64,000 bases of DNA, taken from contig JAQUNI010000001.1 in NCBI GenBank assembly GCA_028717685.1, positions 481,094 to 545,093 of the forward strand, written 5' to 3'. The notes under the pieces were generated by a model, which was not told where the DNA came from, made no database searches, and was given only the letters and a program-made list of their open reading frames with translations. The DNA is from Patescibacteria group bacterium. Lineage in GTDB: Bacteria > Patescibacteriota > JAQUNI01. This document shows, piece after piece, positions 3,196 through 41,272 of the stretch. The stretch's first letter is position 1. Each line of letters opens with the position of its first letter. Position numbers and translations under genes: made by a program.

Positions 3196-3251
3196 ACCCC
3201 ATTAGATAACCTCATTCTCTAAACCTATTTAGAAATTTATTTCTAACGGGG
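3196..3251. repeat. palindromic CCCCGTTAGA...TCTAACGGGG repeat family, full copy (about 56 nt)
   Basis: accccattagataacctcattctctaaacctatttagaaatttatttctaacgggg; about 85% identical to the copy at 10649-10705. Confidence 0.7.
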
Positions 3252-3311
3252 TAAATATAATTTTGGTCAAAGCAGGAAATTTATATTATAATAAAAAGGG
3301 AAAAGATAAAG

Positions 3312-4058
3312 ATGCAAGAAAAAATAAATCCACAACCACTCCCAGGAATAAAAGTCCTCTTTCGAGAAACCACGGATTTTTTTCGGGAACATTTTAGCCT
3401 GCTCATTTCCCTTTCTCTAATTTTAATGGGCATTGTGTTGATTTTTAGTTTTATCTTGGGCATCTTCGGCTCCAGCCTCGCTCTCCTTGTAAGCCTAGCG
3501 AAACAAAAAGTCCTTTTTCTGATAATGATAATTATTTTTGCCATCTTGAGCATCTCATTGCTCATTGCCGCATTGATCTTCCAAATTTTAGCCCAAGGAA
3601 CAGTAATCTTGGCAATTATCCAGAAAGATCATCGCCGTGAAACAGATATCAAAAAAATTTGGCATGAAATTTTTTCCCAAGCTAAATCAATAATTTGGGT
3701 GAATATTCTTACTTTTCTGGCGACTTTAGGCGGTTATCTGCTCTTATTTATTCCCGGCCTCATTTTCGGTCTTTGGTTTAGCTTTGGGATATTCGTCCTT
3801 TTGCAAGAAAAACAAGTTGGACGCGCCGCGCTTAAAAGAAGCAGGGCATTGGTCAAGGGATATTTTTGGCCCATTGCCTTCAGAATCTTTATTCTGACCC
3901 TAATTATTGGCGGATCATCTATTTTCTGTTCCCTGATTCCTCTTTTCGGCAATGCATTAGGGATGGCTATCAGCTTGTTTGCCTTGCCTTTTATGTATAT
4001 CTATCTTTACTTAATATACAAAAATCTTCTTGAGCTTAAAAAAGTGAATCAAAATTAA
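3312..4058 (+). CDS. hypothetical polytopic membrane protein
   Basis: 248 aa, about 6 predicted hydrophobic helices; no motif recognised. Confidence 0.4.
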   Translation: MQEKINPQPLPGIKVLFRETTDFFREHFSLLISLSLILMGIVLIFSFILGIFGSSLALLVSLAKQKVLFLIMIIIFAILSISLLIAALIFQILAQGTVILAIIQKDHRRETDIKKIWHEIFSQAKSIIWVNILTFLATLGGYLLLFIPGLIFGLWFSFGIFVLLQEKQVGRAALKRSRALVKGYFWPIAFRIFILTLIIGGSSIFCSLIPLFGNALGMAISLFALPFMYIYLYLIYKNLLELKKVNQN

Positions 4059-4075
4059 TGGTTCGGCCCCGCTCC

Positions 4076-4110
4076 GCCGAAGTCCGCCTTGGGTGGACGG
4101 AGGCGAGCAA
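4076..4110 (+). repeat. structured GC-rich repeat (ccgccgaagtccgcct..ggcggacg.aggcga), copy 1, just 3' of gene 3312-4058
   Basis: ccgccgaagtccgccttgggtggacggaggcgagc; 29/33 match to 12477-12511. Confidence 0.5.
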
Positions 4111-4189
4111 GCTCACCATTAATTCTCGAACTTTCCCGAAATTAAAATAAACATTCAATCATAATTTGCAAAAAAGGAGGTGATAAAAA

Positions 4190-4882
4190 ATGGACACTTT
4201 AGGGTTGTGGGGCGAAAGCATAGTGGACTCTATAAGCAAAGTCTGGGCGAGCTTCATTATTTTTACCCCTAAATTATTTGGCGCGATTCTCGTAATGGTC
4301 TTGGGCGTATTTATCGCGATCGGCATTGCTAAAATCGTCCGCCGCATTATTAACGCTTTTCGTATTACGACTATCCTGCAAAAAACCAATATTGATGAAA
4401 TAGTAGAACGAGCGGGAATAAAATTTGACGTCGGACAACTCGGATACTGGCTAGTGAAATGGTTTCTCGTGATTGCTTTCTTTATGGCGGCTGCGGAAAT
4501 TCTTAATCTGCCGCAAGTGTCGCAATTCCTGGGTAAAATCTTGTTCTATGTTCCCAACGTGATTGTGGCGGTATTGATTATGCTGATCGGCACCATTTTG
4601 GCTAATTTCCTCTACCGTCTGGTGGAAAAAAGCGCTAAGGCTGCCGATTTAACAGTTTCTGCGCGCCTGCTCGCCGAGCTTTCCCGCTGGTCTGTGCTTA
4701 TCTTCAGTTTGATGGCTGCGTTAATCCAACTCAAGATCGCCGCGGATTTAATTCGCACTCTCTTCACGGGATTGATAGCGATGCTCGCAATCGCGGGCGG
4801 GATTGCTTTTGGCTTAGGAGGCAAGGACGAGGCAAAGCGGGTTGTGGAAAAATTGAAAGGTATACGCAATAAAAAATATTAG
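4190..4882 (+). CDS. membrane protein with repeated conserved TM-helix units (MscS-associated 'TM_helix'-like)
   Basis: 230 aa; repeated pattern of hydrophobic helix followed by short charged linker, reminiscent of PF05552-type repeats; inference only. Confidence 0.4.
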   Translation: MDTLGLWGESIVDSISKVWASFIIFTPKLFGAILVMVLGVFIAIGIAKIVRRIINAFRITTILQKTNIDEIVERAGIKFDVGQLGYWLVKWFLVIAFFMAAAEILNLPQVSQFLGKILFYVPNVIVAVLIMLIGTILANFLYRLVEKSAKAADLTVSARLLAELSRWSVLIFSLMAALIQLKIAADLIRTLFTGLIAMLAIAGGIAFGLGGKDEAKRVVEKLKGIRNKKY

Positions 4883-5013
4883 ACTAAAAAATCCCATCCT
4901 CCGTAGCGAATAAGAAAAACCGCGCCATAAGGGGTCTATCTATTATGTCTTTGGTATTCTTTAGCGTGGCGGTCAATAATCAAAATCGTTGCGGAGGATG
5001 GGAAAAACATCCC

Positions 5014-5041
5014 TTGACAGTATTTGGGAGTAAGTTATAAT
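5014..5041 (+). promoter_or_regulatory. sigma70-type promoter (TTGACA - 16 nt - TATAAT) upstream of 23S rRNA
   Basis: Perfect -35 TTGACA at 5014-5019 and perfect -10 TATAAT at 5036-5041, about 335 nt upstream of the 23S 5' end. Confidence 0.75.
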
Positions 5042-5211
5042 GGAAAATAGCTAAAAATTAAATTACTTTAGTTATGTTATATTTCATTTGCTTTATACTT
5101 CAGCGAAGCGGATAAAATCGCATATCTTGTTTTGTTGCCTTGGGGGAACCGCTTCGTCATCAGAGCGGTTTTTTGATTGGTAAAATTTCAAGAGAGAAGC
5201 CGAACTTTTTA

Positions 5212-5241
5212 CCCCATTAGAGAACGAATTTCTCTAACGGG
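5212..5241. repeat. CCCCGTTAGA-family hairpin (short copy) in rRNA leader
   Basis: ccccattagagaacgaatttctctaacggg. Confidence 0.6.
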
Positions 5242-5325
5242 ATTTAACCCACCCTTATTCAAAAAATTTCCTTTTCTCTTGAATGAAGCCGCTTCGTAAA
5301 GGAAAGAACCTTGACAATTGAATAA

Positions 5326-5360
5326 CCCATTTCAGATAAATATGAATTTATCTAATGGGG
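5326..5360. repeat. CCCCGTTAGA-family-like hairpin in rRNA leader
   Basis: cccatttcagataaatatgaatttatctaatgggg. Confidence 0.5.
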
Positions 5361-6420
5361 TCAAAAATGATTAGAAAACAAAGGGCGTATGGCGAATGCC
5401 TTGACTTAAAGAGACGATGAAGGACGTAGCAGGCTGCGATAAGCCTCGGGGAGCTGCCAAGCAAGCTTTGATCCGAGGATTTCCGAATGGGGAAACCCTA
5501 TGTAGAAAACCTACATAATCCGCCCAAATTTTTGGACTGTTAAAAATAAAAAGCTCCTCAAAAGGGGAGCATGTTAAAAAAATTGCTGGCAAAAGTGCTA
5601 AAAAAGGAGAGAGGTTGGAATTAATCTCTTGGGGACATAGGAGCTCCTTAGTCTATTTGGCGCGCGCCTTTAGCTCCACAATTCCAGACTTCACTTTCTC
5701 TCCTTTCGTCATGTTTCTTAGAATCTCCTACGTTCAAGAAACTATCTGTAGCTGTATTGCTACTAATAGTATATAGCAAATTCAAAAAATCATCAACAGT
5801 CTAAAAATTTGGGCGGAAGACAACCCGGGGAACTGAAACATCTTAGTACCCGGAGGAAAAGAAAAAAAATCCGCGCTTTGCGCGGAACATTCCCTGAGTA
5901 GTGGCGAGCGAAAGGGGAAGAGCCTAAACCTGTCGCCGCAACTCACTGTGTTCCCCTCACATCCGTTCGGGGTAAACTTTTCAGTTTACTCCGATGAGCG
6001 AAGCGACGAGGAGAGCCTAGCGAGTTGCGACGGCCGGGGTTATAAGACGAATACGCTATCAGGGCAACCTGGTACAGAGTTTAATAAAATGCGACTTGCC
6101 TAGCAGAAGGCGCCTGGAACGGCCCACCAAAGAAGGTAAAAGTCCTGTACGCGAAAAGCGTTGCATCTCTGACGTATCTCGTTCTTGAGTACTACACCAC
6201 CAGGGAAATGGTGTAGGAAGTCGGGAGTACTACTAAAGTCGCTCCTCACTTTTGTTCGGAGCTCCTTAAATTTAAAATGCAAAATGAAAAATGCAAAATT
6301 AAGGTAGAAAATTTTGCTTCGCAAAATTTTATTAATTTTAAATTTTGAATTTGTAATTTTAAATTGGAACGACGAGCGAAAGCGAGGAGCGATCTCCCAA
6401 GGCTAAATACTCTTTAAGAT

Positions 6421-6457
<37 letters not shown>

Positions 6458-8891: not shown

Positions 8892-8926
<35 letters not shown>

Positions 8927-9079
8927 CAACGGAGGCGCGTATAAGGTTCCCTTGCTCCGGATGGAAACCGGAGTGAAAGTGTAAAGGCATAAGGGAGCCC
9001 TGCTGCGAGGGGTACATCCCGAGCAGTTACGAAAGTAGACCTTAATGATCCGACTCTTACTTGTAGGAGTGGAGAAGCC

Positions 9080-9114
<35 letters not shown>

Positions 9115-9156
9115 GTCGCGCCCAATAGTCCACATAGACGGCGCGGTTCGGCACCT

Positions 9157-9546
9157 CAACAACATCGGGGTGCCATGGCAGTAATGCCATAACAAAAATC
9201 TGACTTATAACGGTGAAGCCCTAATTCTTTTAATATCTTTTGTGGCATAAGTGATATAATAAGTAAAAGAGATAAATATAAAAGAATGGGTAATACCGTG
9301 GGAAGTTTAACTCAATTTCAAGGCCAAAGTTAAGAAAGATTCTGAATGAAAATATCATTCCATCTATGAAATATAAAATTGAGTTATAACCCCGTAGAGA
9401 CTTGTCCCTAAGGAGGGACGGATAGAAGTGGTGAATCAAATAAATTAAATTACGGCTTCTATAATATGTCAGCCCCCTCACTTTTTAAAGGGGAGGGGTG
9501 AAGATATAGTCCGATCCTCTTAGTAATAAGAGAAAATGCCGACAAG
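9157..9546 (+). other. putative ORF-less group I intron in 23S (between GGCACCU and CGAUGUCGGCUC, peptidyl-transferase region, around E. coli position 2500)
   Basis: 390 nt insertion splitting the invariant GGCACCUCGAUGUCGGCUC block; upstream exon ends in U, insertion ends in G; no ORF. Confidence 0.6.
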
Positions 9547-9639
9547 CGATGTCGGCTCGTCGCATCCTGGAGGTGAAGAAGCTTCCAAGGGTTTGACTGT
9601 TCGCCAATTAAAGCGGTACGCGAGCTGGGTTCAAACCGT

Positions 9640-10122
9640 CAACCAAAACCTATTTACTGTTAGATAGGTTTGGCGGCTTCTAGTGGCAACACTAGAATGA
9701 AAAACTGACTCATATCGGTGAAATCCTAGTTGACAATTAACCTGTCGCATACTAGGATAATACCGAGGGAAGTCACGGCCGTACCTCACTATCGTTCGGT
9801 ACGGGCAAATTTTTAATTTTTAATTTTTAATTTTTAATCAATTTTCAATGATTTAATGCTTAAATTTTTAAACTCAATAGAATAGAGAGTTTAAAAATTG
9901 AGTCATTACAAAATTGGAATTTGTTTGAAAATTAGAAATTGAAAATTAGAAATTCCGCCTGAACGCAAGTGAAGTGCGGCTGGTGACCCCGTAGAGACTC
10001 AAGGATAAGAACAATCCTTGGATTTAATCTTTAAAAAAGATTAGATAATACGTCAGTGCTCCAAAAAATTATTTTGGAGTGTGGTATAGTCCATGCCTTG
10101 TGGCAACACGAGGAGAAACATG
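9640..10122 (+). other. putative ORF-less group I intron in 23S at the classical I-CreI-type site (AACGU^CGUGAGACAG, around E. coli 2593)
   Basis: 483 nt insertion splitting GGGTTCAAACCGT | CGTGAGACAGGTTGG; exon ends in U, intron ends in G; no LAGLIDADG/GIY-YIG ORF. Confidence 0.6.
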
Positions 10123-10648
10123 CGTGAGACAGGTTGGTCTCCTATCTGATACAGCCGCATAAAGTCTTGAGGGAGCCCATTTCCAGTACGAGAGGACCGA
10201 AATGGATAGACCTCTGGTGTACCAGTTATCTTACCAAAGGTAAACGCTGGGTAGCTACGTCTAGTTAGGATAAATGCTGAAAGCATATAAGCGTGAAGCC
10301 GTTCCCAAGATTAGGACTTTCCGCCGCAAGGCGGAGGATTTGGTCGGAGAAGACGACCTTGATAGGCTCTAGGTGTAAGTCCTGCAAGGGATTTAGCCGA
10401 GGAGTACTAATAGATCTATTTCAATCATCTTTTGACCCCGTTAGATAAATTTATTTTCAAAAAGCGCATAGACTAAACAAAGTTATAACCCAAAAATTGA
10501 ATTTGAGTTTTAACCTTTTTAGTCTTGCGTTGCACTAGTGTCTTCACAACAAAAATCGGCTTTTAAATTGGCAAGCGTGGTGGTGATGATTGCTGTCTTT
10601 ATTACGATCGTCTTTTTACTGACCCCTCCGGCGATCGGGATGAGGTAA

Positions 10649-10705
10649 ACCCCGTTAGAGAACCTCCTTCTCTAACTCCGTTTAGAAATTTATTTCCAGC
10701 AGGGG
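10649..10705. repeat. CCCCGTTAGA-family full copy in 23S-5S spacer
   Basis: accccgttagagaacctccttctctaactccgtttagaaatttatttccagcagggg. Confidence 0.7.
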
Positions 10706-10949
10706 CTAACGGTCTGCACTGACGATGATATTAAACCACCGCCAACTTTAAGCGGTAATGACCACCGATTAAAATCGGTAACTTTCTCTAACGGGGTAAA
10801 AAACCCCAAAAATCCTGAAAGAATTTTTGGGTGACCCCTGAAGAAAAGCCCCACAAAATTATAGATTTTATGGGGGACCCCTGAAAAACCCCAATCAATC
10901 CCTATAATCAACGGAGATCTGTGAGCTAGAATGAATTAACTAATAGCTC

Positions 10950-11066: not shown

Positions 11067-11072
11067 TTATCA

Positions 11073-12979: not shown

Positions 12980-12993
12980 GCAGTGAGGAAATG

Positions 12994-13024
12994 CTGGTTT
13001 AAGTGCGTATAATATTCAAGAATT
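12994..13024 (+). repeat. intergenic element 'X' (gtttaagYgcgtataatattcaagaatt), copy 1
   Basis: ctggtttaagtgcgtataatattcaagaatt; 29/31 identical to 14374-14404. Confidence 0.6.
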
Positions 13025-13109
13025 TGTATTCTTTATAAACACAACGCGTATAACAATGAGTTATGTAAAATTACCAATAAATTTACACTCTAAAATTTAA
13101 CATTATTTT

Positions 13110-13814
13110 ATGTCAGACAAAACTGAAGGGACATTTGTCCCAGAACAAGAAAAAAGGAGGGGTATAGAAGTCCTAAATTTGCCAGAAGTTAGAGTAAGCT
13201 CTGCTTCATTCGCTAGAATTCGTGATAGCCAAGGAAGATACGCGCTTCTTGTAAACAAAAATAGGGCAAAAAAGGGAGACATCTTACTAACTCCGATTGG
13301 TGGCGCAATTGAAACCACTGAAGAAGGTTTACAAACCCTTCAACAACTTCTTGAAATTGAAAAAATTGCGTTTGAAAAAGGAAATGATTTACGCTTCCGT
13401 ATGCCAGGAAAAAAAGCCAATGAATTTAGGGCATGGTTTCTTCAAAGACAACAGAGAGAGACGAACCCAATAAGAGAAGTTGTTGAAGAACTTGTTGATG
13501 AGGCAGAGCTATTAAAAAGAGAAGATCTTGGTGAGCTTCAGTGTGGCTTGGTCGGCTTTGATGCTGAGCTGGAGGAAACAACACGTATAGGGCAAGAAGG
13601 GCAAATGACCCTGCGCTTGTTGGAAATATTTGAGGCAGGATTAAAAGCTGAAATTATAACTAAATTAGAAGAATTATCTAATCAACCAAACGCAGTTATC
13701 TATTTTGTAACCGCCGAAGAAATACAAGCTGGACAAACTAATGATGGAATTAAGATTAGTAAATCATCCAACTCTCTGCTGAATCCAAAAAAAACGATAG
13801 AACCGTTCATATAA
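13110..13814 (+). CDS. hypothetical protein; possible Nudix-fold with degenerate Nudix box
   Basis: YALLVNK...DILLTPIGGAIETTEEGLQTLQQLLEIEKIAF resembles the Nudix box (GX5EX7REUXEEXGU) but RE and one E of EE are replaced; low confidence. Confidence 0.3.
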   Translation: MSDKTEGTFVPEQEKRRGIEVLNLPEVRVSSASFARIRDSQGRYALLVNKNRAKKGDILLTPIGGAIETTEEGLQTLQQLLEIEKIAFEKGNDLRFRMPGKKANEFRAWFLQRQQRETNPIREVVEELVDEAELLKREDLGELQCGLVGFDAELEETTRIGQEGQMTLRLLEIFEAGLKAEIITKLEELSNQPNAVIYFVTAEEIQAGQTNDGIKISKSSNSLLNPKKTIEPFI

Positions 13815-13842
13815 ATTTATTGGCAACATTACATAACAGCAT

Positions 13843-13912
13843 ATATCTGGCTCGCTCCCTGCAGTCAATTGACTCATATTCACTTCAGGTGGACATCAGA
13901 TATACACAAACG
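13843..13912 (+). repeat. conserved about 70 nt intergenic element 'Y', copy A
   Basis: tatatctggctcgctccctgcagtcaattgactcatattcacttcaggtggacatcagatatacacaaacg; related copies at 14916-14988 and 15838-15906. Confidence 0.6.
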
Positions 13913-14012
13913 TTGAATAAAATACCACTTACATTTCAAGGGGTGGAATTCAAATTGATGATAAATTTATAAAATCGCATTAGAAAATTATTAACTACTA
14001 ACGAAAAAACAA

Positions 14013-14351
14013 ATGGAAAACTTGGAACAAGAGAGTGGAGATATTCATACCAAAGAAGTTGAGAGGAACAATATTGATATCGAAGAAATCAAAAGGTTTT
14101 ATGATGTGATAGGCACCAAAATGCGTAATTTCACAAGACCATCCGGAAAACTGAATGTGGAAGCCTATGGAAGATTTATGGATTTTATGGATAAATTGGA
14201 AGAGAAATACGGGAAAGAAGAATTACGAAAATATGCGGCATGGCAGGCGGCAAGCGGCAGCAGTATTTTAGAGGACGAATTTATTGACATCACGGGGCTT
14301 GATCTTCCGGGTGAAGATTCCATAGAGAATTTTTTTGACTCACAAAAATGA
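14013..14351 (+). CDS. hypothetical acidic protein (paralog 1 of tandem pair)
   Basis: 112 aa, MENLEQESG...; about 55% identical to the downstream gene, with duplicated 5' leader. Confidence 0.5.
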   Translation: MENLEQESGDIHTKEVERNNIDIEEIKRFYDVIGTKMRNFTRPSGKLNVEAYGRFMDFMDKLEEKYGKEELRKYAAWQAASGSSILEDEFIDITGLDLPGEDSIENFFDSQK

Positions 14352-14373
14352 GCTGTCCGCCAATTAGGGAACG

Positions 14374-14404
14374 CCAGTTTAAGCGCGTATAATATTCAAG
14401 AATT
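14374..14404 (+). repeat. intergenic element 'X', copy 2
   Basis: ccagtttaagcgcgtataatattcaagaatt. Confidence 0.6.
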
Positions 14405-14513
14405 AAGATTTTTTCAGAAAACAATTCATATAAGAACGAGTTAAACGAAATTTTGCTCAACAAATATTTTTTATTTTTTATTAAAAAATTATTAACTACT
14501 AACGAAAAAACAA

Positions 14514-14852
14514 ATGGAAAACTTGGAACAAGAGAGTGGAAATATCTATACCGAAAAAATTGAGAGGAACAATATTGATATCGAAGAAATCAAAAGGTTT
14601 TATGATATGATAAGAACCAAAATGGAGAATGCCATAAGTCCATCCGGAGAACTGAGCGAGGAAGCCTGGGACAAACTTACGGATTTTATTCAACAATTGA
14701 AAAACAAATACGGGCAAGAAGAATTACAAAAATGCGCGGCATTCCATGCGGCAACCGGCAGTGGTATTCCCGAGGGTAAATTGGTTGATATCACAAGGCT
14801 TGATTTTCCGGGCGGAGATTCCATAGAGGATTTTTTGGACTCGCAAAAATGA
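14514..14852 (+). CDS. hypothetical acidic protein (paralog 2 of tandem pair)
   Basis: 112 aa, same N-terminus (MENLEQESG.I.T...ERNNIDIEEIKRFYD) and C-terminus (DSIE.F.DSQK) as 14013-14351. Confidence 0.5.
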   Translation: MENLEQESGNIYTEKIERNNIDIEEIKRFYDMIRTKMENAISPSGELSEEAWDKLTDFIQQLKNKYGQEELQKCAAFHAATGSGIPEGKLVDITRLDFPGGDSIEDFLDSQK

Positions 14853-14915
14853 ACAGGCTCGGATAATATTTTTCCTATCGGCAAAATAAAACTTTTCATT
14901 ACATCCAGTGACAGT

Positions 14916-14988
14916 ATATATCTGGCTCGCTTATTATAGTCACTCGAATCATATCCACCTAAGGCGGACATCAGATACACGTACACGC
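14916..14988 (+). repeat. intergenic element 'Y', copy B
   Basis: tatatctggctcgcttattatagtcactcgaatcatatccacctaaggcggacatcagatacacgtacacg. Confidence 0.6.
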
Positions 14989-14995
14989 AAATATT

Positions 14996-15808
14996 GTGCG
15001 CAATCAACAACCTAAAATTATGGATCAAAGCATACTTACAGAATGTGGAAAATTTGCAACCGAGTTGGCGAAAAACGCAGGAAGTCTGATCAAAAAACAC
15101 TTTGAGCAAAAATTAAATAAGACCAAAAAGGATAAAGAAGAAAGGAATTTTGTCACAAGAGCAGACCTTGAGTCAGAGGAATTCATCATCAACAGTATCA
15201 AAAAGGAATTTCCTGACCATAATATCTTAGCCGAGGAATCTGGGTCTCTCACGTCTCTATCAGGGTTTATTTGGATAGTTGATCCTCTTGATGGAACAAC
15301 AAACTTTTCAAGAAATTTGCCATTTTTCACGATTTCTATCGCACTCGCAAAAAATGATCGGGTTATTCTAGGCATTGTATATCAACCAATCAATGACGAG
15401 TTGTTTTATGCTGAAAAGGGAAAGGGAGCGTTCCTGAATGCAAAAAGAATTATCGTATCTGAAAATCACTCCTTATCAAAATCAATAGTCTCTCAAAGCT
15501 TTGATTATTCTAATAAAAAGAGAAGAGACAATATCAAAAATATACAGAAAATCTTCTTTTTGATTGAAGGTTTCAGATTGCTTCATTCAACCGCGTTGGA
15601 ACTTTGTTATGTTGCATCGGGACGATATGATGGATATATGATCTCAAGCGCAAACCCATGGGACATTGCGGCTGGGGCATTAATCGTGGAAGAAGCTGGT
15701 GGATCTGTGACTAAATTTGATGGTACACAATGGGAATTGATGCGCCCAAGGATTGTTGCTACGAATGGATTAATTCACAAAGAACTTCTAAAGAAAATAA
15801 ATACCTAG
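14996..15808 (+). CDS. inositol monophosphatase family protein (SuhB/CysQ-like)
   Basis: IMPase motifs IWIVDPLDGTTNF and WDIAAGALIVEEAGG. Confidence 0.8.
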   Translation: MRNQQPKIMDQSILTECGKFATELAKNAGSLIKKHFEQKLNKTKKDKEERNFVTRADLESEEFIINSIKKEFPDHNILAEESGSLTSLSGFIWIVDPLDGTTNFSRNLPFFTISIALAKNDRVILGIVYQPINDELFYAEKGKGAFLNAKRIIVSENHSLSKSIVSQSFDYSNKKRRDNIKNIQKIFFLIEGFRLLHSTALELCYVASGRYDGYMISSANPWDIAAGALIVEEAGGSVTKFDGTQWELMRPRIVATNGLIHKELLKKINT

Positions 15809-15837
15809 CAAGGATTGACTGCGCCCAACAGCGACTA

Positions 15838-15906
15838 TGCGGTTTCGCTCCCTTGCAGTCGCTCCACCCACATTCACTTCAGGCGGACATCGGATATCCG
15901 CGAACG
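15838..15906 (+). repeat. intergenic element 'Y', copy C
   Basis: gcggtttcgctcccttgcagtcgctccacccacattcacttcaggcggacatcggatatccgcgaacg. Confidence 0.55.
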
Positions 15907-15997
15907 TTATTGGCGATCTTTCGGGCTTAAAGAAAGGAGATAAGAAAGATTTGTTATTCATTATTTAAATAACAATGTTAAAAACATCGGAGGGTAT

Positions 15998-24236: not shown

Positions 24237-24632
24237 ATGTTCAAATTCAAATTATTCTCCACTATAATCCTTGCCCTACTCGGAATATCTTTAGTCTTAA
24301 ACCTAGCCCACGCGGCTTTAGTGCCTTGCGGCGGCACGGGTCAACCGGAGTGCAATCTTTGCCATTTTTTTGTCTTAATCCAAACTATCTTTAAATATCT
24401 GCTGGGATTTCTGGGAATCGTGGCGCTGCTCATCTTTGTCATCATCGGCTTTATGTTTTTATTCGGTTCCACCAATGAAGGTCTGCTCACTACCGGCAAA
24501 AAGGCTCTGACCTCCGCGATAATCGGTCTTGTCCTGGTGCTCGTCGCTTGGCTTATAATCAACACTGTGGGCTACGCCATAGGTTGGGCGCAAAAAGGCA
24601 GCTGGTGGACATTTAATTGCGTATCAGAATAA
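24237..24632 (+). CDS. VirB2/TrbC-like two-TM pilin-family protein (member 1 of array)
   Basis: Signal peptide, 4-Cys loop (PCGGTGQPEC.LC), two hydrophobic helices separated by FGSTNEGLLTTGKKAL loop. Confidence 0.45.
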   Translation: MFKFKLFSTIILALLGISLVLNLAHAALVPCGGTGQPECNLCHFFVLIQTIFKYLLGFLGIVALLIFVIIGFMFLFGSTNEGLLTTGKKALTSAIIGLVLVLVAWLIINTVGYAIGWAQKGSWWTFNCVSE

Positions 24633-24633
24633 A

Positions 24634-24664
24634 CCCTATTAGAAAACTTTGCTTCTAACGGGGT
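24634..24664. repeat. CCCCGTTAGA-family short hairpin after pilin gene 1
   Basis: ccctattagaaaactttgcttctaacggggt. Confidence 0.6.
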
Positions 24665-24687
24665 AAAAACATTTTTATAATTTCAAA

Positions 24688-24738
24688 GGATGTCACTCGC
24701 GAGCCACGTCGTTCGCGAACGACGTGGCGAGTGATATC
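24688..24738. promoter_or_regulatory. 51 nt near-perfect palindrome with GTCGTTCGCGAACGAC core, 9 nt upstream of the giant pilin-adhesin ATG
   Basis: ggatgtcactcgcgagccacgtcgttcgcgaacgacgtggcgagtgatatcc; shares core and flanks (aaaggatgtc...atcctaaaa) with the palindrome at 41548-41571 upstream of dnaA. Confidence 0.55.
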
Positions 24739-24746
24739 CTAAAAAA

Positions 24747-28466: not shown

Positions 28467-28536
28467 AATCACAACGCGAGCGATAGGGCGCCGCGAGCGG
28501 CTAAAAAACACAAGATCAAAATCAAATAAAAAACCA

Positions 28537-29070
28537 ATGAAAAAATCCAAATATCCGCAAATTTTCTGCTTGAGCATCTTCCTGCTCCTCTTTGGTTTTT
28601 CTGTTTTCACCGCAACGGCGCAAGATGAACCTACTGGATTACAACGCCCTGACGCCGCGGCGGCTGGACTGCCCGCGGGTGACTTCAAGGCTTTGATTAA
28701 CGGCATTGTAAAATGGGTGCTTTGGATCGCAGCGCCAGCTTGTTTAGTCGCTCTTGTTTACGGCGGGATGCGTTATGCCTTTGCCGGAGGAAGTGAAGAG
28801 AAGGCTGAAAATGCGAAGAAGATAATGAAATACGCAGTCATTGGCGTCGCGATCATCATCGCGGCTTACGCTATTGTCGGCTTAATCACCGCGCTTATTT
28901 CCGGCGAAGTGCCGGCAACGCCAGAAGTCAACGGAAGTAATGCCACTCCGAAACGATTTGCTGGCGGTTGCCCAAGTCTGGGACAAGGGGCTCGCTGTGT
29001 CAATGCTGACAATGTACAAAGTCTATGTAATTGTGAGACCACTGATCCTAATAGCTGTTACTGTCCTTGA
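28537..29070 (+). CDS. pilin-family protein with C-terminal 8-Cys knot-like tail
   Basis: Signal peptide; WVLWIAAPACLVALVYGGMRYAFAGGSEEKAENAKKIMKYAVIGVAIIIAAYAIVGL two-TM unit; C-terminal CPSLGQGARCVNADNVQSLCNCETTDPNSCYCP. Confidence 0.5.
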   Translation: MKKSKYPQIFCLSIFLLLFGFSVFTATAQDEPTGLQRPDAAAAGLPAGDFKALINGIVKWVLWIAAPACLVALVYGGMRYAFAGGSEEKAENAKKIMKYAVIGVAIIIAAYAIVGLITALISGEVPATPEVNGSNATPKRFAGGCPSLGQGARCVNADNVQSLCNCETTDPNSCYCP

Positions 29071-29129
29071 TAACATTTTTATATTTCTCCACAAAATAAA
29101 ATCAATAAAATTGAAGGGAGGTGAAATAA

Positions 29130-29537
29130 ATGAAGTTAAATTACAAAAAAATTGTTCCCATACTAAGTCTTTTCACTATAATTAGTTTGTTTGGTCTTTA
29201 TAGTTTCACAGCAATAGCAGCAGATCCAACAGACACATGGAAAGAACAAAAGATCCCCGTAACAGGCCCAGAAATGTCCACTGACGCGCCCAAGAATATG
29301 GTTACCATAGCCCTGAACTGGTTCTATATCATTGCCGCCGTTCTTTGTGTGGCTGTTATTATTTGGGCAGGAATTACCTATGCGACCGCAGGTGGCGACG
29401 AGGAAAAGGTGGGGAAAGCAAAAAATCGTCTTATTTACGGCATCATTGGGGTAGCCTTGATTATCGGCGCTTACGCGATTACCCAACTGATTAAAAGTGC
29501 GATGTCTGGTACAGCACCAGCAGCGCCAACATTGTAA
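29130..29537 (+). CDS. pilin-family protein (two-TM unit YATAGGDEEKVGKAKNRLIYG)
   Basis: Signal peptide + WFYIIAAVLCVAVIIWAGITYATAGGDEEKVGKAKNRLIYGIIGVALIIGAYAITQL. Confidence 0.55.
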   Translation: MKLNYKKIVPILSLFTIISLFGLYSFTAIAADPTDTWKEQKIPVTGPEMSTDAPKNMVTIALNWFYIIAAVLCVAVIIWAGITYATAGGDEEKVGKAKNRLIYGIIGVALIIGAYAITQLIKSAMSGTAPAAPTL

Positions 29538-29575
29538 TAACCAAGACAAATAACTAAATATAATCAAAAAAGGAG

Positions 29576-30010
29576 GTGAGAACAATGTACAAACGCAAAC
29601 TGAAAAATCTGTTAATGTTATGCATTATTGCCTTAGTTTTAACAGGCCCGAGTTTGGTTTCCATAGCCCAAGCAGCAGACACAGAGGGTACTATCCCCAC
29701 TCAAATCCCTTCTGCTGGCTTTCAAGCAAAACCTAGCGATGCAGAAGTACAGGCAGCCCCTGGTAAACTACTGACCACAGGACTAAGTTGGTTCTATGCT
29801 ATTGCCGCAATACTTTGTGTGGCTGTTATTATTTGGGCAGGAATTACCTATGCGACCGCAGGTGGCGACGAGGAAAAGGTGGGGAAAGCAAAAAATCGTC
29901 TTATTTACGGCATCATTGGGGTAGCCTTGATTATCGGCGCTTACGCGATTACCCAACTGATTAAGAGTGCGATGTCTGGCAACGCACCAACAGCACCGAC
30001 ATTGCAGTAA
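29576..30010 (+). CDS. pilin-family protein, near-identical core to 29130-29537
   Basis: Shares a 167 nt stretch with one mismatch with the preceding gene; same two-TM unit. Confidence 0.55.
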   Translation: MRTMYKRKLKNLLMLCIIALVLTGPSLVSIAQAADTEGTIPTQIPSAGFQAKPSDAEVQAAPGKLLTTGLSWFYAIAAILCVAVIIWAGITYATAGGDEEKVGKAKNRLIYGIIGVALIIGAYAITQLIKSAMSGNAPTAPTLQ

Positions 30011-30035
30011 AAAGAACTAAAATAAACAAAAACAG

Positions 30036-30066
30036 ACTATCCGTTAACGGGTCTGTTTTTGTTTTG
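30036..30066 (+). terminator. hairpin + T-run after pilin gene
   Basis: cagactatccgttaacgggtctgtttttgtttt. Confidence 0.5.
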
Positions 30067-30133
30067 CGCAGTTTAGAAATTTCAATTATAATAAAGGCAA
30101 GGTAATAATTCTACCCAAATAAAAAACAAAATT

Positions 30134-30598
30134 ATGTCTAAAATTATCAAAAGCGCATTTTTTCTAATTCTCCTAACCGCGCCTTTGTTCTTTGCTCAAG
30201 GCGCCGGAGAAGAACCTGAATATTATTGCACCAAAAAACAAGACAATGGCGAATTGAAAAAATGCACCTCCAATGCGCAATGCGTGGGTTTGGGCACCTG
30301 CGTCAAAGTGTATCATGGCGGTTTTCAGCCAGCATACAATCCCGATACCCCTAAAGCATGGATTACAGCAGGTTTAAACTGGTTCTTAGCCCTCGCCGCG
30401 ATTCTCTGTGTTGCCGTTTTGGTTTGGGCTGGTATTACTTATGCCACAGCCGGCGGAGATGAAGACAAAGTAGAAAAAGCCAAGAAGAGAATGATTTATG
30501 GAGTAATTGGGGTTGCTTTTATTATTGGCGCTTTTGCAATTACCCAGCTCATCAAAACTGGCCTAGAAGGGAATCTGCCTACTAGCCCCGCTTTGTAA
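30134..30598 (+). CDS. pilin-family protein with N-terminal 6-Cys module
   Basis: EYYCTKKQDNGELKKCTSNAQCVGLGTCVKVY then WFLALAAILCVAVLVWAGITYATAGGDEDKVEKAKKRMIYGVIGVAFIIGAFAITQL. Confidence 0.55.
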   Translation: MSKIIKSAFFLILLTAPLFFAQGAGEEPEYYCTKKQDNGELKKCTSNAQCVGLGTCVKVYHGGFQPAYNPDTPKAWITAGLNWFLALAAILCVAVLVWAGITYATAGGDEDKVEKAKKRMIYGVIGVAFIIGAFAITQLIKTGLEGNLPTSPAL

Positions 30599-30630
30599 TA
30601 ACAAAACTGGCAATAAAAATATCAAAACTT

Positions 30631-31320: not shown

Positions 31321-32616
31321 TCATTGCTTCGCCCCTGCGGTGGTCACGATGACGACAGCGACTATTATCCAAAACAGCACCGACAAATCATTTTTAAAAT
31401 AAGGCGTGTCCACAAGACCGTGCACCAGCAACGCTATCATTGCCGCTAAGGCGTATTCCACTATGGGATCATCTTTCTTTTGCCAGCCTTGTTTGAAGAA
31501 GATAATAATGAGCCAGATAAAACTTGCTAAACCCAAAATACCCATCTCAATCCATAGAGCGAGATACAGATTGTGCGGTTTGACTACCAACCATTCCAAA
31601 GGCGGAAAAGCAACTCGCGGCACATATTCGCGGTAGGAGGCTTCAAAATTCCCCAATCCCACACCCCAAAAAGGGTGTTCTTTTATAATAAGAAGCGAAG
31701 TCTGCCAAATTTCCGCGCGAGTAGAAGAGGAGGTGCGAGTGCTAAAATCCAAAAGCCGTCCGAATTTGGGCGACTCGGATTCGCTAATGCTTACCAAAAT
31801 TACAAGCAGGGCAAAAATCAAGAGATATTTTAATCTTTTTATCGGGATTTTAATTCTAGACCAAAGGAAAACGAGAGCGCCGAACAATCCCAGCCAACCG
31901 CCATAAGATTTAGTGAAATAGAGAGCGAGAAGAACTGCAATAAATAATAGGTAATAGGTAATCAGTAAAAATTTGGAGCGCACTTTTTTCCAAAAAGTGA
32001 AAGATAGAACCAAAATAGGTGCCACATACATCGCGACATAATTTGCCGGAACAAAAAACGAGTTCAACCGACCATCCGAATCAAGACCTACCCGAAAAAT
32101 ATACTCGTAAAGCCCATAAATCGCAATGTAAGAAGCGGAAAGAAATAATGTGAGAACAACTGCCTTAATCTCTTTTTTTCTTCTTACAAGATCTAAAAAT
32201 AGAATTAAGACCAAAAGGGGATTAAGAAACCAACCCTTTAAAACCCCCAAACTCAATCTTTTATCCGGGGAAATGACGGTCGCGAGAATTGCTGCCCCGA
32301 AAAACAAAGCTAGGGGGATAAAAAAAGGACGGATGACGCGATAAACTCGCCTTATTTTTTTAATTAAATTTTTAGAAAAAATCGCTTTGAACAGCCAAAC
32401 TAGAAAAACAAAATAAATGGATAGTTCTAAAAAAGTGGTAGGAATGAAAAAAATCTCTCTCCGGATTAAATAAGTAGGAAGCAGAAACAAAATCAAATAC
32501 AAACCCCAGCGGGTTTTAAATAAAGATATTATTAGGATAAATAGCAGAAAGAGTGTGAAGTATAGCATAAATTTTGGAATTAGGAATAATGAATTGGGAA
32601 TAAGGAATAGCATCAT
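31321..32616 (-). CDS. O-antigen ligase/polymerase-like polytopic membrane protein
   Basis: About 11 TM helices; Wzy_C-like block LALYFTKSYGGWLGLFGALV. Confidence 0.5.
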   Translation of the reverse strand: MMLFLIPNSLFLIPKFMLYFTLFLLFILIISLFKTRWGLYLILFLLPTYLIRREIFFIPTTFLELSIYFVFLVWLFKAIFSKNLIKKIRRVYRVIRPFFIPLALFFGAAILATVISPDKRLSLGVLKGWFLNPLLVLILFLDLVRRKKEIKAVVLTLFLSASYIAIYGLYEYIFRVGLDSDGRLNSFFVPANYVAMYVAPILVLSFTFWKKVRSKFLLITYYLLFIAVLLALYFTKSYGGWLGLFGALVFLWSRIKIPIKRLKYLLIFALLVILVSISESESPKFGRLLDFSTRTSSSTRAEIWQTSLLIIKEHPFWGVGLGNFEASYREYVPRVAFPPLEWLVVKPHNLYLALWIEMGILGLASFIWLIIIFFKQGWQKKDDPIVEYALAAMIALLVHGLVDTPYFKNDLSVLFWIIVAVVIVTTAGAKQ

Positions 32617-35286: not shown

Positions 35287-35559
35287 ACTGTGAAAAATTA
35301 GTAAACCTTAAATTACTAAATGCATCGTCTGTTAGCGAGGGATGTTCCCTCCCCTTACCAAGGGGAGACGGGGAGGGGTCTAATTTATATCTAGATGTTT
35401 ATAGCTAGATGACCATTCTCCCTCCCCCTCCATCTCCCCCTCGGGCAGGGGGAGTGTAATCAGGCTTCTCGCTAATGGACAGAATAAATTTCGTAATTTA
35501 AGGGTAGTAAACGGTAAAAATTACTAATTAACTAATTACTAGTTACTGATTACCAATTA

Positions 35560-36468
35560 CTAACTATCATTTACCCTTTTATAACGCGCAAAACCTTTAA
35601 ACTTTCCTCGCACCCGCTGCCAATACTCCCGCTCGATAAGAGCAAGCAGACTATAAATGAAAATCTGCCAAGCCTGATAAGAGAAAAAGGCGATAAAGGT
35701 AAAAATATTTTGAAAAGCAATATTTTTTAAACCGAAATAAACCTCATTAGCTCTTAAGTTCTTCATTGCTTCAAGGGGAGCAAGGCGCCCCCCTGGGGAA
35801 TAGGAATGAACAACAAAAGCCTGACCATTGTAAAAGACTTTCCCCCCTCTATGCTTAATACGAAGGCATAAATCCGGCTCTTCCAGATTGGGACCGGGCA
35901 AAAAGTTTTTCTCAAACCCTCCCACCTCTTGAAAATAAGAGTTTCGCACTGCAAGGTTGCCAGCGCCGCCCCAATCGCAAAATCCTTGGGTAGCAAGGGA
36001 GAGACGCGCGTCCACGCGACCATTAAAATAAATCGTGCCGCCTGCTCTTTTACGACATAACAAATAAAACGGATAAAAAGGCAAATTTAAAATTATATCA
36101 GAAAATGCGCCCTGTTTGCTTTGCAAACGTTTCTCCACAATTCTACCCGCAACAACCACTATCTCTCTATTCTTGAAAGGTTTCGCGATCTCCGCGAGCC
36201 AATGAGGAGAGGGGGCACAGTCGTCATCTAAAAAAGCTAATACTTCCCCCCGAGCTATCCTCGCTCCCGCGTTTTTAGCCCTTCCAGGACCAATACTACC
36301 GCGGGTCGCAATCACTTTAACTCCTTGAAACTTATTTGGCGCCCCGGTGCGACTGTCATTAACAACAATAATCTCCTTAGGCTTCAAGGTCTGCTTTTTT
36401 AAACCCTCTAAGCACAGATTAAGTTCGCGCGCCCTGCCGCAAGTAGGAATAATAACCGAGATTTGCAT
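35560..36468 (-). CDS. glycosyltransferase family 2
   Basis: ISVIIPTCGR...VVNDSR...FLDDD (DxD) GT2 signature. Confidence 0.8.
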   Translation of the reverse strand: MQISVIIPTCGRARELNLCLEGLKKQTLKPKEIIVVNDSRTGAPNKFQGVKVIATRGSIGPGRAKNAGARIARGEVLAFLDDDCAPSPHWLAEIAKPFKNREIVVVAGRIVEKRLQSKQGAFSDIILNLPFYPFYLLCRKRAGGTIYFNGRVDARLSLATQGFCDWGGAGNLAVRNSYFQEVGGFEKNFLPGPNLEEPDLCLRIKHRGGKVFYNGQAFVVHSYSPGGRLAPLEAMKNLRANEVYFGLKNIAFQNIFTFIAFFSYQAWQIFIYSLLALIEREYWQRVRGKFKGFARYKRVNDS

Positions 36469-37922: not shown

Positions 37923-38048
37923 ATATTACTATATTCTAGCCAAAAAAACAATAGGACAGGATAATTAAGGCATACTAAAAAGACCCCCTACGGAGCCAAA
38001 AGAATAGTCTGCCCTACACGATGCGATAATTTCATCATCTATGTTAAA

Positions 38049-38588: not shown

Positions 38589-38758
38589 AGTGAAAAAATT
38601 AACCTAATTATTCTAATTAACCTAATTGACCTAAATAAATCAGGAATACCCAAATCCCAATGAACAAAATTAATTATCAAGTAAGAATTATTGGGTGATT
38701 CAAGATTTGTTCATTGTTTAGAATAATTAGAGCAATTAGAATAATTAGAAATTTTCAT

Positions 38759-39271: not shown

Positions 39272-39417
39272 ATTTTTGGCGTTAATCTTGATAAATCCCG
39301 CAAAATTTTAATTCGCTCTATAGACCTTTTGTAAGACAACCTTTTCTGCTGCAATTAGCGGATTGCATAACGAAAAATTATCTCGCAAAAGGTCTTATTT
39401 AAAAAGCAAGAAATATC

Positions 39418-40167
39418 TTAAGAAACAGGGAATGATTCTTTGTCTTTATCTGAATCCTTTCTCATCACCAACCACTGTTGGGCAATGGAAAACAAAGTCG
39501 TCGCTACCCAATAAAGGGAAAGACCCGCGGGAAAACTTAAGGCAATAAAAATAGTTAAGACGGGCATAATATAAACCATCTGGTTGGTCATATTGGCGGC
39601 AATAGCGCTAAAATCATTACCGCTCGCCCGCGGCGCGGGCTTCTTTTTTTTCATCAGCATCCTGGACTGCCAGAATTGGGTCACGCCTGCCAAAATCGCC
39701 AAATAAACGTTCCTTGCTCCTAAATCTAAAAAATTTAAAAAGTAGGGATCTAACTTACCCGGATTATGGACAAAAGAGTATAAGAGCTTAAGCACCTCCG
39801 GATTATTGAGACCATCCCTTAAAACTTGATAAATCGCAATTAGGAATGGAAATTGAATCAAAATGGGCAGGCAAGAAGAAAGGGGATTAATTTTATTCTT
39901 GCGGTAAAATTCCATAGTCGCCCGACTCATTCCTTCCTTGTCGTTTTGATACTGCTTCTTGATTTTCTCAAGCTCCGGCTGTAAATCCTGCAAGGCTTTT
40001 TGCGATTTAACGGATTTCGCGGACAAAGGATAAAGGATGAATCTCAAAACAATGGTCAGGACAATAATCGCGATGCCCAAATCATGGCCTGGAATAATAT
40101 TATAAAAAAATACCAGCAGATTGAAAAGGGGTTGATAGAGAAGAGTACGAAACAAATCGCCGAGCAT
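39418..40167 (-). CDS. yidC: membrane protein insertase YidC/Oxa1 (short form)
   Basis: GIAIIVLTIVLRFILYPLS...EFYRKNKINPLSSCLPILIQFPFLIAIY matches the 60 kDa inner-membrane insertase core. Confidence 0.85.
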   Translation of the reverse strand: MLGDLFRTLLYQPLFNLLVFFYNIIPGHDLGIAIIVLTIVLRFILYPLSAKSVKSQKALQDLQPELEKIKKQYQNDKEGMSRATMEFYRKNKINPLSSCLPILIQFPFLIAIYQVLRDGLNNPEVLKLLYSFVHNPGKLDPYFLNFLDLGARNVYLAILAGVTQFWQSRMLMKKKKPAPRASGNDFSAIAANMTNQMVYIMPVLTIFIALSFPAGLSLYWVATTLFSIAQQWLVMRKDSDKDKESFPVS

Positions 40168-40200
40168 AATTTGGAATTATAAATTATGAATAGATAAGAG

Positions 40201-40443
40201 TTATCGCACAGGGTCGTAACCACCCTTGCTCCATGGATGACAACGGATAACCCTTTTCAGAGCAAGCCACGACCCGCGCAAAACGCCGAATCTTTGAATA
40301 GATTCGTGACCATATTCAGAACAAGTAGGGGTAAAACGGCAAAAGCCATAAGGATGGCGAAAGGCTGGAAAACCATGATCCGGAGAGAGGGTGATTTGAT
40401 ATAAGCGAATGAGCTTTAGAAGAAGAAAACGCATAAATTTCAT
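40201..40443 (-). CDS. yidD: membrane protein insertion efficiency factor YidD
   Basis: YQITLSP...[11 protein letters not shown]...[11 protein letters not shown] signature, 80 aa. Confidence 0.85.
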
Positions 40444-40489
40444 TGTTCTATTGTTTCATTGCTTCATTGTTAAAGCAATAGTTTGGCTT

Positions 40490-40834
40490 TTAAGCCTGAA
40501 AAGTCCGGCTCTTGCAGAGTAAATTTTTTATATCTTCTTGAATTTTCTGGAAGTTTTTGCCAACTATAGCTGGCTGCGCAATGATGACCACATCATATCC
40601 ACCCTGTAAGTGATTTAAAAAAAACTTAACCGCCTCGCTCATTCTTCTCTTAATTAAATTGCGGCCGGTTGCTTTTTTAATCAATTTTTTAGAAATCACA
40701 AAGCCAAATCTCGCCACACCCCGATCATTTCTGACTATTTTAGCGATGAATAATTCAGATCTTAAACCCCAACCTTGCCTGAAAACATAATTAAAGTCTT
40801 TTTTATCCGTCAAACGATGTTCTTTAGGCAACAT
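40490..40834 (-). CDS. rnpA: ribonuclease P protein component
   Basis: L.K..RL....F..V......R......IARFGF.ISKK..KKA..RN..KRR, basic 114 aa, between rpmH and yidD. Confidence 0.85.
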   Translation of the reverse strand: MLPKEHRLTDKKDFNYVFRQGWGLRSELFIAKIVRNDRGVARFGFVISKKLIKKATGRNLIKRRMSEAVKFFLNHLQGGYDVVIIAQPAIVGKNFQKIQEDIKNLLCKSRTFQA

Positions 40835-40845
40835 ACGATTTATCT

Positions 40846-40980
40846 CTATTTGCTCAATCTTTTTCTGCCCTTACGGCGTCTGCGAGCCAATAAATTGCGG
40901 CCGGCGCCAGTTTGCATTCTTTTCCGAAACCCATGGACTCTCTTTCTTCTTTTTCTTTTAGGCTGATAAGTTCTTTTCAT
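40846..40980 (-). CDS. rpmH: 50S ribosomal protein L34
   Basis: [44 protein letters not shown] (44 aa); ORF-track start upstream is too long. Confidence 0.85.
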
Positions 40981-41242
40981 AAGAAAAAATAAATCCAGCG
41001 CATTTCGGCGGGGCGTTAATTGCCTAATCACCGAAAAGATCGCAGCTTTCTGACGCCACCGAACAGACAGCGGAGCATTCAAAAAGGTGCTGGATAAAAA
41101 ATATTAATTATTAAATCCTCTTTCAAAAGTGTAACTGATATTACCCCCAAAGTCAAACTAATGTATTTTAACTTATTCAGCTAACTTTATCCCGCCAGAG
41201 AAAGCCCCGACGAAGTCGGTAGTGGAAAAAATATAGACGCTG

Positions 41243-41272
41243 ACCCTGTTAGAAATAAATTTCTAACAGGGT
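41243..41272. repeat. CCCCGTTAGA-family short hairpin upstream of dnaA
   Basis: accctgttagaaataaatttctaacagggt. Confidence 0.6.

Follow-up and report, generated by a model that had tools for sequence, protein, structure and literature searches.

Miniature transposable elements with inverted repeats (MITEs), repetitive extragenic palindromes (REPs) and the Rickettsia palindromic elements (RPEs) are the described repeats closest to a family of short hairpins found in a 64,000-nt stretch of a Patescibacteria group bacterium (JAQUNI010000001.1, positions 481,094-545,093, forward strand), hereafter the window. The hairpins, with conserved arms CCCCGTTAGA and TCTAACGGGG, are very probably mobile palindromic elements that insert with a 4-bp target duplication and have spread across phyla. 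The family shows MITE-like behaviour, a REP-like look and RPE-like lodging in genes, and misses a defining feature of each.

Bacterial MITEs such as the Correia elements (CREE) of Neisseria resemble the family in being non-coding, in their terminal inverted repeats, fixed-length target duplication and dispersed copies, in presence/absence polymorphism between relatives, in nested insertions and in arms that form a hairpin when transcribed. Correia hairpins are substrates of RNase III. The size range of MITEs is 70-300 bp (PMC3733652), whereas the family is far smaller, with 29-31 nt for complete, independently inserted copies; unlike MITEs, it lacks, as judged from the window and 148 loci, a parent insertion sequence that shares its ends, its ends are common to many phyla, and its insertion is oriented. 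REPs, their bacterial interspersed mosaic elements (BIMEs) and the REP-associated tyrosine transposases (RAYTs) that accompany them (GTAG- or CGTC-tagged; PMC3733652) are likewise palindromes of 20-40 nt that are mostly extragenic and sometimes in genes, clustered or nested, with the hairpin form probably relevant. The family differs in lacking the GTAG/CGTC tag, in flanks that read Y-N-N-R (mostly TTTA/TAAA), in a 4-bp target duplication that is not a REP feature, and in conserving the base of the stem rather than its apex. The RAYT genes examined also carry another palindrome, and REP families are usually species- or genus-specific.

RPEs, which Ogata and co-workers reportedly described in 2000 as palindromic selfish repeats in frame within protein-coding genes, are also like the family in lying near RNA genes and in having no known transposase. 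They are summarized as well in PMC3733652 and, compared by description, differ in being ~100-150 bp long and confined to Rickettsia, unlike a family that starts at 29 nt, has a clear 4-bp duplication and occurs in many phyla. IS200/IS605 elements and palindrome-associated transposable elements (PATEs) share hairpin dependence, oriented insertion by a short T-rich tetra- or pentanucleotide, and no need for long inverted terminal repeats. However, IS200/IS605 elements make no target duplication, have ends that differ from each other and are accompanied by Y1 transposase or TnpB genes, none of which is seen here; the ends of the family are symmetric, and copies identical to one another carry different exact duplications. 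The piggyBac and IS1380 transposons are alike in a 4-bp T/A-rich duplication and in ends that start with CCC. For piggyBac the target is TTAA, with rare TAAA, TCAA or CTAA, and the end motifs are CCCTT, CCCTC or CCCAT (PMC10813416), whereas TTAA is never the duplication here and no such transposase was found in the window or the loci. Finally, the RNase III-cleaved processing stems that flank 23S rRNA are approached by the ~35 bp over which the 23S flanks of the window pair; this likeness is limited to one arm pair, the other copies having no long-range partner.

Target duplication, element anatomy and copies inside genes

Exact hairpins were collected with the pattern CCCCRTTAGA-N8-38-TCTAAYGGGG over one genome per species (GTDB representatives) and occur at no fewer than 120 loci, several of which hold 2-3 copies, and also in 26 viral contigs. 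By our own estimate ~70-140 chance matches to this 20-position pattern are expected in 596 Gb; the locus count alone therefore proves nothing, and it is the features of the matches that carry the case. Identical 4-nt direct repeats stand on both sides of 60 of 129 distinct hairpins, against 9.8 (maximum 18) in shuffled flank pairs, and only one of the flank matches reaches 5 nt. All 60 duplications are of the form Y-N-N-R, compared to a background of 24%, and are mostly TTTA, TTCA or TTGA; there is further enrichment of G at -5 and of C at +5, so that the target resembles G-TTTA-C. A scrambled-arm palindrome family from the viral contigs, used as a control, has such flanks in 0 of 17 cases.

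Identical elements are found with different, self-matching duplications (TTGA in L109 and TTCA in L115; TTTA in L086 and TTCA in L113), and the tetranucleotide therefore derives from the target. When each copy was turned so that its duplication reads Y-T-N-R and the asymmetric interiors were then compared, 16 pairs agreed and 3 disagreed (8/8, 4/4 and 2/2 within clusters); insertion is therefore oriented relative to a target that is itself asymmetric. In 60-86 cases no duplication is palindromic (TTAA, TATA). Copies that have no exact duplication keep Y-N-N-R on both sides, with YTNR on the left and YNAR on the right in 16 instances against 1 of the reverse.

Empty sites are seen for two of the window copies (Table 1). 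Copy b together with one TTTA corresponds to a 35-nt gap in loci L149, L152 and L153, with flanks that align base for base, and copy e is absent from the 88%-identical relative L149, in which the spacer flanks are ~95% identical. Copies b and e were inserted after the split from this relative, and the others are older.

Each arm of the element is 13 nt long, the outer 10 nt being conserved and the inner 3 nt variable yet complementary, so that the terminal inverted repeats consist of 10 conserved and 3 covarying nucleotides. The 13-bp stem runs 3 bp past the conserved part and then ends; at position 11, for example, the pairs are A:T (64), G:C (34) and T:A (19). The modal element, which is also the minimal one, measures 29 nt, i.e. 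the 13-bp stem with a 3-nt loop. Overall lengths range from 28 to 262 nt, the arms enclosing anything from a 3-nt loop to ~240 nt that often include further nested copies, and no element has coding capacity of its own. Lengths that leave a remainder of 2 on division by 3 are over-represented (71/126 elements).

Genes are disfavoured but tolerated as insertion sites. Some 71% of copies fall between genes or at a gene edge, compared with 20% of random points; outside the window about a quarter of the copies are in frame within coding sequences. A first-pass annotation of the window held that copies located mostly in coding sequences would count against the family, which is inapplicable because coding insertions belong to the behaviour of the family. 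Among copies more than 60 nt inside long open reading frames (ORFs), 30 of 31 keep the frame, with (L+4) mod 3 = 0. Such copies are tolerated in genes since the usual lengths, with 4 added, divide by 3 and two of the three frames are open on either strand. The encoded inserts of 11-19 residues follow the two open arm frames, as P[VI]R..SNG or PL[ED]..LTG. Three copies (L119, L054, L091) lie in the codons of the prepilin cleavage site (GGN TTT ACN = G TTTA C), with an upstream frame M..KGF, a downstream frame GFTLIEL and 33, 39 or 57 nt of element plus duplication. In the NAD+ synthase of L063 the insert LAPLENISLTG (29 + 4 nt) occupies the interdomain linker, and 94%-identical orthologues lack precisely 11 residues there and have the same flanking sequence. 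For the L037 GTPase, the other translational GTPases with which it was aligned were paralogues and do not inform on an insert. The NAD+ synthases P0147 and P0150 of other Nitrospirota metagenome-assembled genomes (MAGs) likewise have 11 additional residues in this linker, but of the different sequence ..SYSPLKLRGGRGSYE.., perhaps because a different small element inserted there independently.

Host range, mobilising enzyme and rival explanations

By record title, the matches listed comprise roughly 33 from Patescibacteria, 24 from Omnitrophota, 19 from Planctomycetota, 10 from Nitrospirota/Thermodesulfovibrionia and 10 from Desulfobacterota-type lineages, as well as two from archaeal bins (L073, L084) and singletons from Cloacimonadota, Ignavibacteria and others. 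When elements are grouped by their interior, the resulting subfamilies (31-nt, 40-nt, 50-nt and ~147-nt composite) cross phyla, so the repeats are not the genome-specific family proposed at first. The 31-nt subfamily of copy b is also found in Omnitrophota (L021, L044, L058), and the ~147-nt composite aligns over its full length between copy e and MAGs of Planctomycetia (L047), Doudnabacteria (L010) and Omnitrophota (L044); this 147-nt element has no match in plasmid and phage reference collections. Literature searches on the 10-mers returned just primers and unrelated matches, and those on MITEs in these phyla returned nothing specific. The family is without prior description in the searchable literature and without an Rfam entry, Rfam 15 placing no family at any window copy at the gathering threshold or at permissive E-values.

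Two further observations concern the surroundings of these copies. In some phage copies (L132, and L123/L125/L131/L140) certain flanks are inverted rather than direct, e.g. AAAAAC-CCCC...GGGG-GTTTTC, so that the stem is extended; these copies are placed after structural genes (capsid, tail tube) and may act as terminators. At several Omnitrophota and Cloacimonadota loci (L117 3240-3269 and 4799-4828, L069 12-47, L034, L036, L086, L111) the hairpins are embedded in a second short repeat, ACGCAGAT.. / ..ATCTGTG.., that lies on both sides of the element.

The elements insert in fixed orientation, mostly into G-TTTA-C-like sites, with a 4-bp duplication of a Y-N-N-R target, and would be mobilized in trans by a transposase presumably encoded outside the window. 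The substrate is probably a folded form, hairpin or cruciform, because a 29-bp duplex is too short for its two ends to be joined and because the inner stem covaries. The leading, though tentative, candidate is an enzyme of the DDE type that makes 4-bp staggered cuts, since a duplication of fixed length suggests that both strands of the target are cut with a stagger, as DDE transposases do; termini in CCC and a 4-bp duplication rich in T/A would suit an enzyme like those of IS1380/piggyBac.

A number of points weigh against such mobile elements and such an enzyme. No autonomous copy, with arms 0.6-5 kb apart enclosing a transposase, emerges from long-range arm pairs with matching flanks or from solo arms in the window or the 148 loci; no transposase domain appears in the 50 main window ORFs scanned against Pfam; and clustering of neighbours yields no recurrent protein family beside the copies, the recurrent neighbours being generic only (histidine kinases, GTPases, ABC ATPases, pilins). 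About half of the copies have no exact duplication. Orientation-specific insertion, the lack of palindromic duplications and the 16:1 YTNR/YNAR bias are unusual for DDE enzymes, and the suggested likeness to IS1380/piggyBac is one of end motifs only. As to spread, the taxonomic labels are those of metagenome bins, of which the two archaeal ones may be mis-binned, and the scan sets a lower bound on the number of loci, on abundance and on host range.

It has also to be considered that these are REP-type elements moved by a Y1/HUH transposase of the RAYT or IS200/IS605-like kind, which would travel as hairpins of single-stranded DNA and enter 3' of a TTNA-like tetranucleotide; its match at the opposite end would then belong to the element or to its recognition. 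This is unlikely, if far from negligible. IS200/IS605 targets such as TTAC and TTGAT resemble the tetranucleotide of the family; the size is that of REPs (29 nt with a 13-bp covarying stem), insertion is oriented beside an asymmetric tetranucleotide, flanks are not palindromic, both flanks conform to YNNR also where there is no duplication, and no element bounded by terminal inverted repeats and carrying its own enzyme occurs in the window or the loci examined. RAYT-like genes are moreover very abundant in Patescibacteria, with 1261 homologues, and both the occurrence of REPs within genes and the biology of REP/RAYT systems have been described (PMC3733652). Against this, identical elements with differing matched tetranucleotides fit a target duplication and not a carried-along end; the GTAG or CGTC tag is missing; and four Y1 proteins compared with the window by tblastn find no match. 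In a set of 80 RAYT-like metagenome loci (L199-L278, 319 kb) each gene has perfect palindromes of a different kind on either side, located near -45 and +10 to +30, with a conserved apex AGG(C/T)G-N-C(G/A)CCT (AGGCG-N-CGCCT) and a variable lower stem; 0 of 94 of these have 4-nt direct flanks, and a single CCCCRTTAGA arm occurs in the 319 kb. Such loci match the classic REPtron of Di Nocera et al. (PMC3733652).

Y1 genes are nonetheless met with near some copies. IS200-like Y1 genes lie near copies in 4 of the 120 loci listed; those of L033 (6253-7012) and L071 (1501-2226) are flanked by TTAGAGG-containing palindromes that form ACTTAGAGG...CCTCTAAGT hairpins. The RAYT clade next to two copies was rejected as the mobilizer, because the REP that goes with it is another one and nothing ties the clade to CCCCGTTAGA. 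The Y1 gene of L036 is of another type, and the 26-nt inverted repeats on its two sides contain GGGGACAC, the GGGGWSAS motif of "TIRYT" elements.

The remaining alternatives to mobile elements carry little weight. The first-pass annotation took the repeats for a genome-specific family of terminators or processing sites. On such a view they would be functional RNA hairpins that evolved in place, and the window copies are indeed all intergenic and fold well, two arms make up a 23S processing helix, and stem covariation would fit an RNA function too. Such an origin is very improbable, given empty-site alignments that show precise presence or absence with a duplicated tetranucleotide, insertions within genes, and the same sequences in many phyla and in phages. 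In the window no copy has a T-run or a terminator-like score; copies of either orientation occur, and rRNA spacers and the origin region are among their sites. The processing role survives for one arm pair (5351-5360 with 10436-10445) and for no other copy. That the hairpins are chance palindromes, or an artefact of assembly or library, is scarcely credible. It is true that the expected number of chance matches is of the order of the count, that ~10% of matches look like chance (e.g. Bacteroidales L005/L096, Akkermansia L030) and that one of two scrambled-arm controls gave 42 matches in the viral contigs, compared with 26 real ones. These 42 are due to one conserved phage hairpin, so that raw counts in a redundant viral collection are weak and the flank statistic is robust; the other control gave 2 matches. 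Moreover, the YNNR motif and the duplicated flanks are peculiar to the family, selection for the reading frame is apparent, and one and the same copy is present in independent assemblies from JGI/NCBI (L149) and ENA (L150). Equally hard to credit is an identity with integron attC recombination sites, in which GTTAGA would stand for box R' (GTTRRRY) and TCTAAC for box R'' (RYYYAAC). Both boxes agree in sequence and the hosts are similar in range to those of environmental integrons, but the order is reversed (GTTAGA-loop-TCTAAC instead of R''...R'), the insertion boundaries lie outside CCCC/GGGG and not between G and TT, and neither cassette arrays nor an integrase lie near the copies.

Window copies and neighbouring features

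The window contains tRNA genes, the gene for ribosomal protein L19, 23S and 5S rRNA, a row of genes for type IV secretion system (T4SS) pilin-like proteins, and rnpA-dnaA-dnaN-recF at the GC-skew minimum (cumulative skew is lowest at ~42-44 kb); the host genome is Doudnabacteria-like, its nearest named relative (88% identity) being a Candidatus Doudnabacteria MAG. CCCCRTTAGA has nine exact matches on the two strands, all within 3197-41281, compared with 0.15 +/- 0.36 in shuffles, none of 100 shuffles reaching nine, and this bears out the repeat family of small dispersed palindromes of the MITE/REP kind that had been recognized on first reading. With up to 2 mismatches allowed the count is at chance level, and the signal in the window therefore depends on near-exact arms. 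The copy set was built by pairing left and right arms and then reading the sequence; it comprises seven element sites (Table 1), every one intergenic or in an rRNA spacer as first stated. Their orientations are mixed, the copies being too few to judge a replication- or transcription-strand bias. A cyanobacterial HIP1 context was considered and rejected, GCGATCGC being present just once.

Table 1. Hairpin copies, processing-helix strands and a look-alike hairpin in the window
Feature	Coordinates	Strand	Fold (kcal/mol; z)	Description
Copy a	3197..3251		-14.7; -3.05	55 nt, left third of the long subfamily; exact arms; from alignment with the long family
Copy b	5208..5246		-13.5; -4.8	31-nt element 5212-5242, CCCCATTAGAGAACGAATTTCTCTAACGGGA; TTTA at 5208-5211 and 5243-5246
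Hairpin X	5326..5360	+	-13.2; -2.85	Directly 5' of the 23S gene; left arm degenerate, CCCATTTCAGATAAAT; right arm intact, ATTTATCTAATGGGG, 5346-5360
23S processing helix (predicted), 5' strand	5342..5377	+		Right arm of hairpin X and first 23S rRNA bases
23S processing helix (predicted), 3' strand	10419..10455	+		Left arm Y, CCCCGTTAGATAAAT, 10436-10450, right after the 23S 3' end at ~10431
Copy e	10646..10800		-44.5; -4.1	147-nt composite 10650-10796; TAAA at 10646-10649 and 10797-10800; 23S-5S spacer
Copy f	24630..24667		-12.1; -4.2	30-nt element 24634-24663; TAAA on both sides
Copy g	41186..41285		-35.9; -4.9	92-nt element 41190-41281, long subfamily reversed; TTTA on both sides
Non-member hairpin	30036..30066	+	z -1.7 only	Intrinsic-terminator-like, with T-run, 3' of a pilin-like gene; family arms missing (CCGTTAACGG only)

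Copy a lies between an RNHCP-domain gene and a UPF0259-like gene. It is an old copy, with flanks AAGA / TAAA that show no duplication; a 65-nt version is present in L149, and the 73% relatives L152/L153 have none. Its similarity to the left 56 nt of copy e, put at ~85% identity by the first-pass annotation, holds at ~83-85%. Copy e itself had been entered as two copies (10649-10705 and a half copy at 10783-10810), which are really the two ends of one TAAA-flanked element. Copy b is in the 23S leader, downstream of a perfect sigma-70-like, promoter-like site at 5014-5041. The left TAAA of copy f includes the stop codon of a T4SS-pilin-like gene (24237-24632); the copy has no T-run and is not scored terminator-like. 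Copy g, homologous to the L010 element, occupies the rnpA-dnaA (origin) intergenic region between the genes for RNase P protein and DnaA, and consists of a left arm that has degenerated to TCCCGCCAGAGAAAG, a hairpin nested at 41244-41271 and a right arm at 41272-41281; the hairpin reported earlier at 41243-41272 is thus real but is no standalone copy. The supposed minimal version in a terminator at 30036-30066 is an ordinary stem with a T-run (terminator-like score at 30039-30052) and is unrelated to the family.

The sites at 5326-5360 and 10436-10455, earlier listed as a copy and a half copy, are no simple copies: the right arm of X and the left arm Y pair across the 23S gene. The duplex of the two strands has a dimer minimum free energy of -41.8 kcal/mol, compared with -18.8 +/- 2.9 in 200 shuffles; within it the arms 5346-5360 and 10436-10450 are the outer 15 bp and extend helix 1 and a TCAAAA/TTTTGA stem to ~35 bp. 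The right arm of X is kept in relatives L149-L153; both 23S flanks are kept in L149, the 3' strand base for base, and the 5' flank is also kept in L152/L153. The X/Y arm pair is the outer part of this predicted 23S processing helix, and as judged from sequence its arms may be either ancient insertions co-opted for processing or mere look-alikes of the family. Copies b and e, in turn, are recent passengers in the rRNA operon.

The 23S gene (5369-~10431, ~5.06 kb) is ~2.1 kb longer than the bacterial model and has no adjacent 16S gene; its 3' end is placed by the match of large-subunit model positions 2449-2925 to 9240-10431. Inserts in it include a group-I-intron-like segment (9397-9533) and long A/T-rich hairpin-like stretches at ~6221-6400 and 9764-9993, which match plant miRNA-precursor models on both strands; the 23S gene of the relative L150 holds LAGLIDADG ORFs. 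A second, unrelated hairpin repeat follows at 10797-10890, with tandem units AAACCCCA..(loop)..TGGGGGACCCC(T/G)GAA. It recurs in L149 at ~19100-19180 and in L152/L153 upstream of the UPF0259-like gene; the window has one unit more than L149, and the minus-strand units score terminator-like. Intergenic heptanucleotide tandem repeats (GGAATCA / GTAATCA and variants) are found at 49255-49322, 61440-61479, 46244-46288, 62027-62071, 35531-35575 and 32569-32608, and similar 7-nt periodic A/T-rich runs lie within the 23S insertions (6268-6365, 9800-9954).

The pilin row at 24237-30598 comprises six genes with a T4SS-pilin (TrbC/VirB2-like) domain, including one for a protein of 1239 residues (24747-28466). 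A 237-nt block occurs in it three times, at 29304-29540 and 29774-30010 (91% identity) and at 30365-30601 (66%). Thirty nt downstream of copy f, just before the gene for the 1239-residue protein, is a long, near-perfect G+C-rich palindrome (24695-24735, TCACTCGCGAGCCACGTCGTTCG/CGAACGACGTGGCGAGTGA). Duplicated modules at 12981-15908, with repeats of 92, 102, 300 and 58 nt spaced ~1-1.4 kb apart, lie around the gene for a SMODS-associated NUDIX protein (13110-13814) and two 112-residue paralogues (14013-14351, 14514-14852), and look like a tandem duplicated cassette that is possibly defence-related.

Implications for small genomes and their phages

It is conceivable, as a tentative extension of the case for mobility, that the family represents a class of mobile DNA not described before, ultra-small and at 29 nt possibly the smallest known with a target-site duplication, moving as a folded hairpin or cruciform by way of an enzyme not yet linked to it, crossing phyla and perhaps domains, partly via phages, with a length (29 + 4 = 33) and open frames tuned for genes and rRNA operons. 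If so, a single 13-bp-stem hairpin has colonized the small genomes of the candidate phyla radiation, Omnitrophota, Planctomycetota, Nitrospirota and sulfate-reducer lineages together with their phages, and the family would be a marker of DNA exchange among co-occurring, mostly uncultivated groups. It would also be a source of small in-frame peptide inserts in housekeeping proteins and pilins and of ready-made RNA-processing helices. The minimal size would place a hard geometric constraint on the mechanism of transposition, and the enzyme could reveal a hairpin-specific integration chemistry. In practical terms, repeats of this kind will break assemblies, mislead gene callers through extended leaders and split ORFs, and mimic terminators in annotation pipelines.

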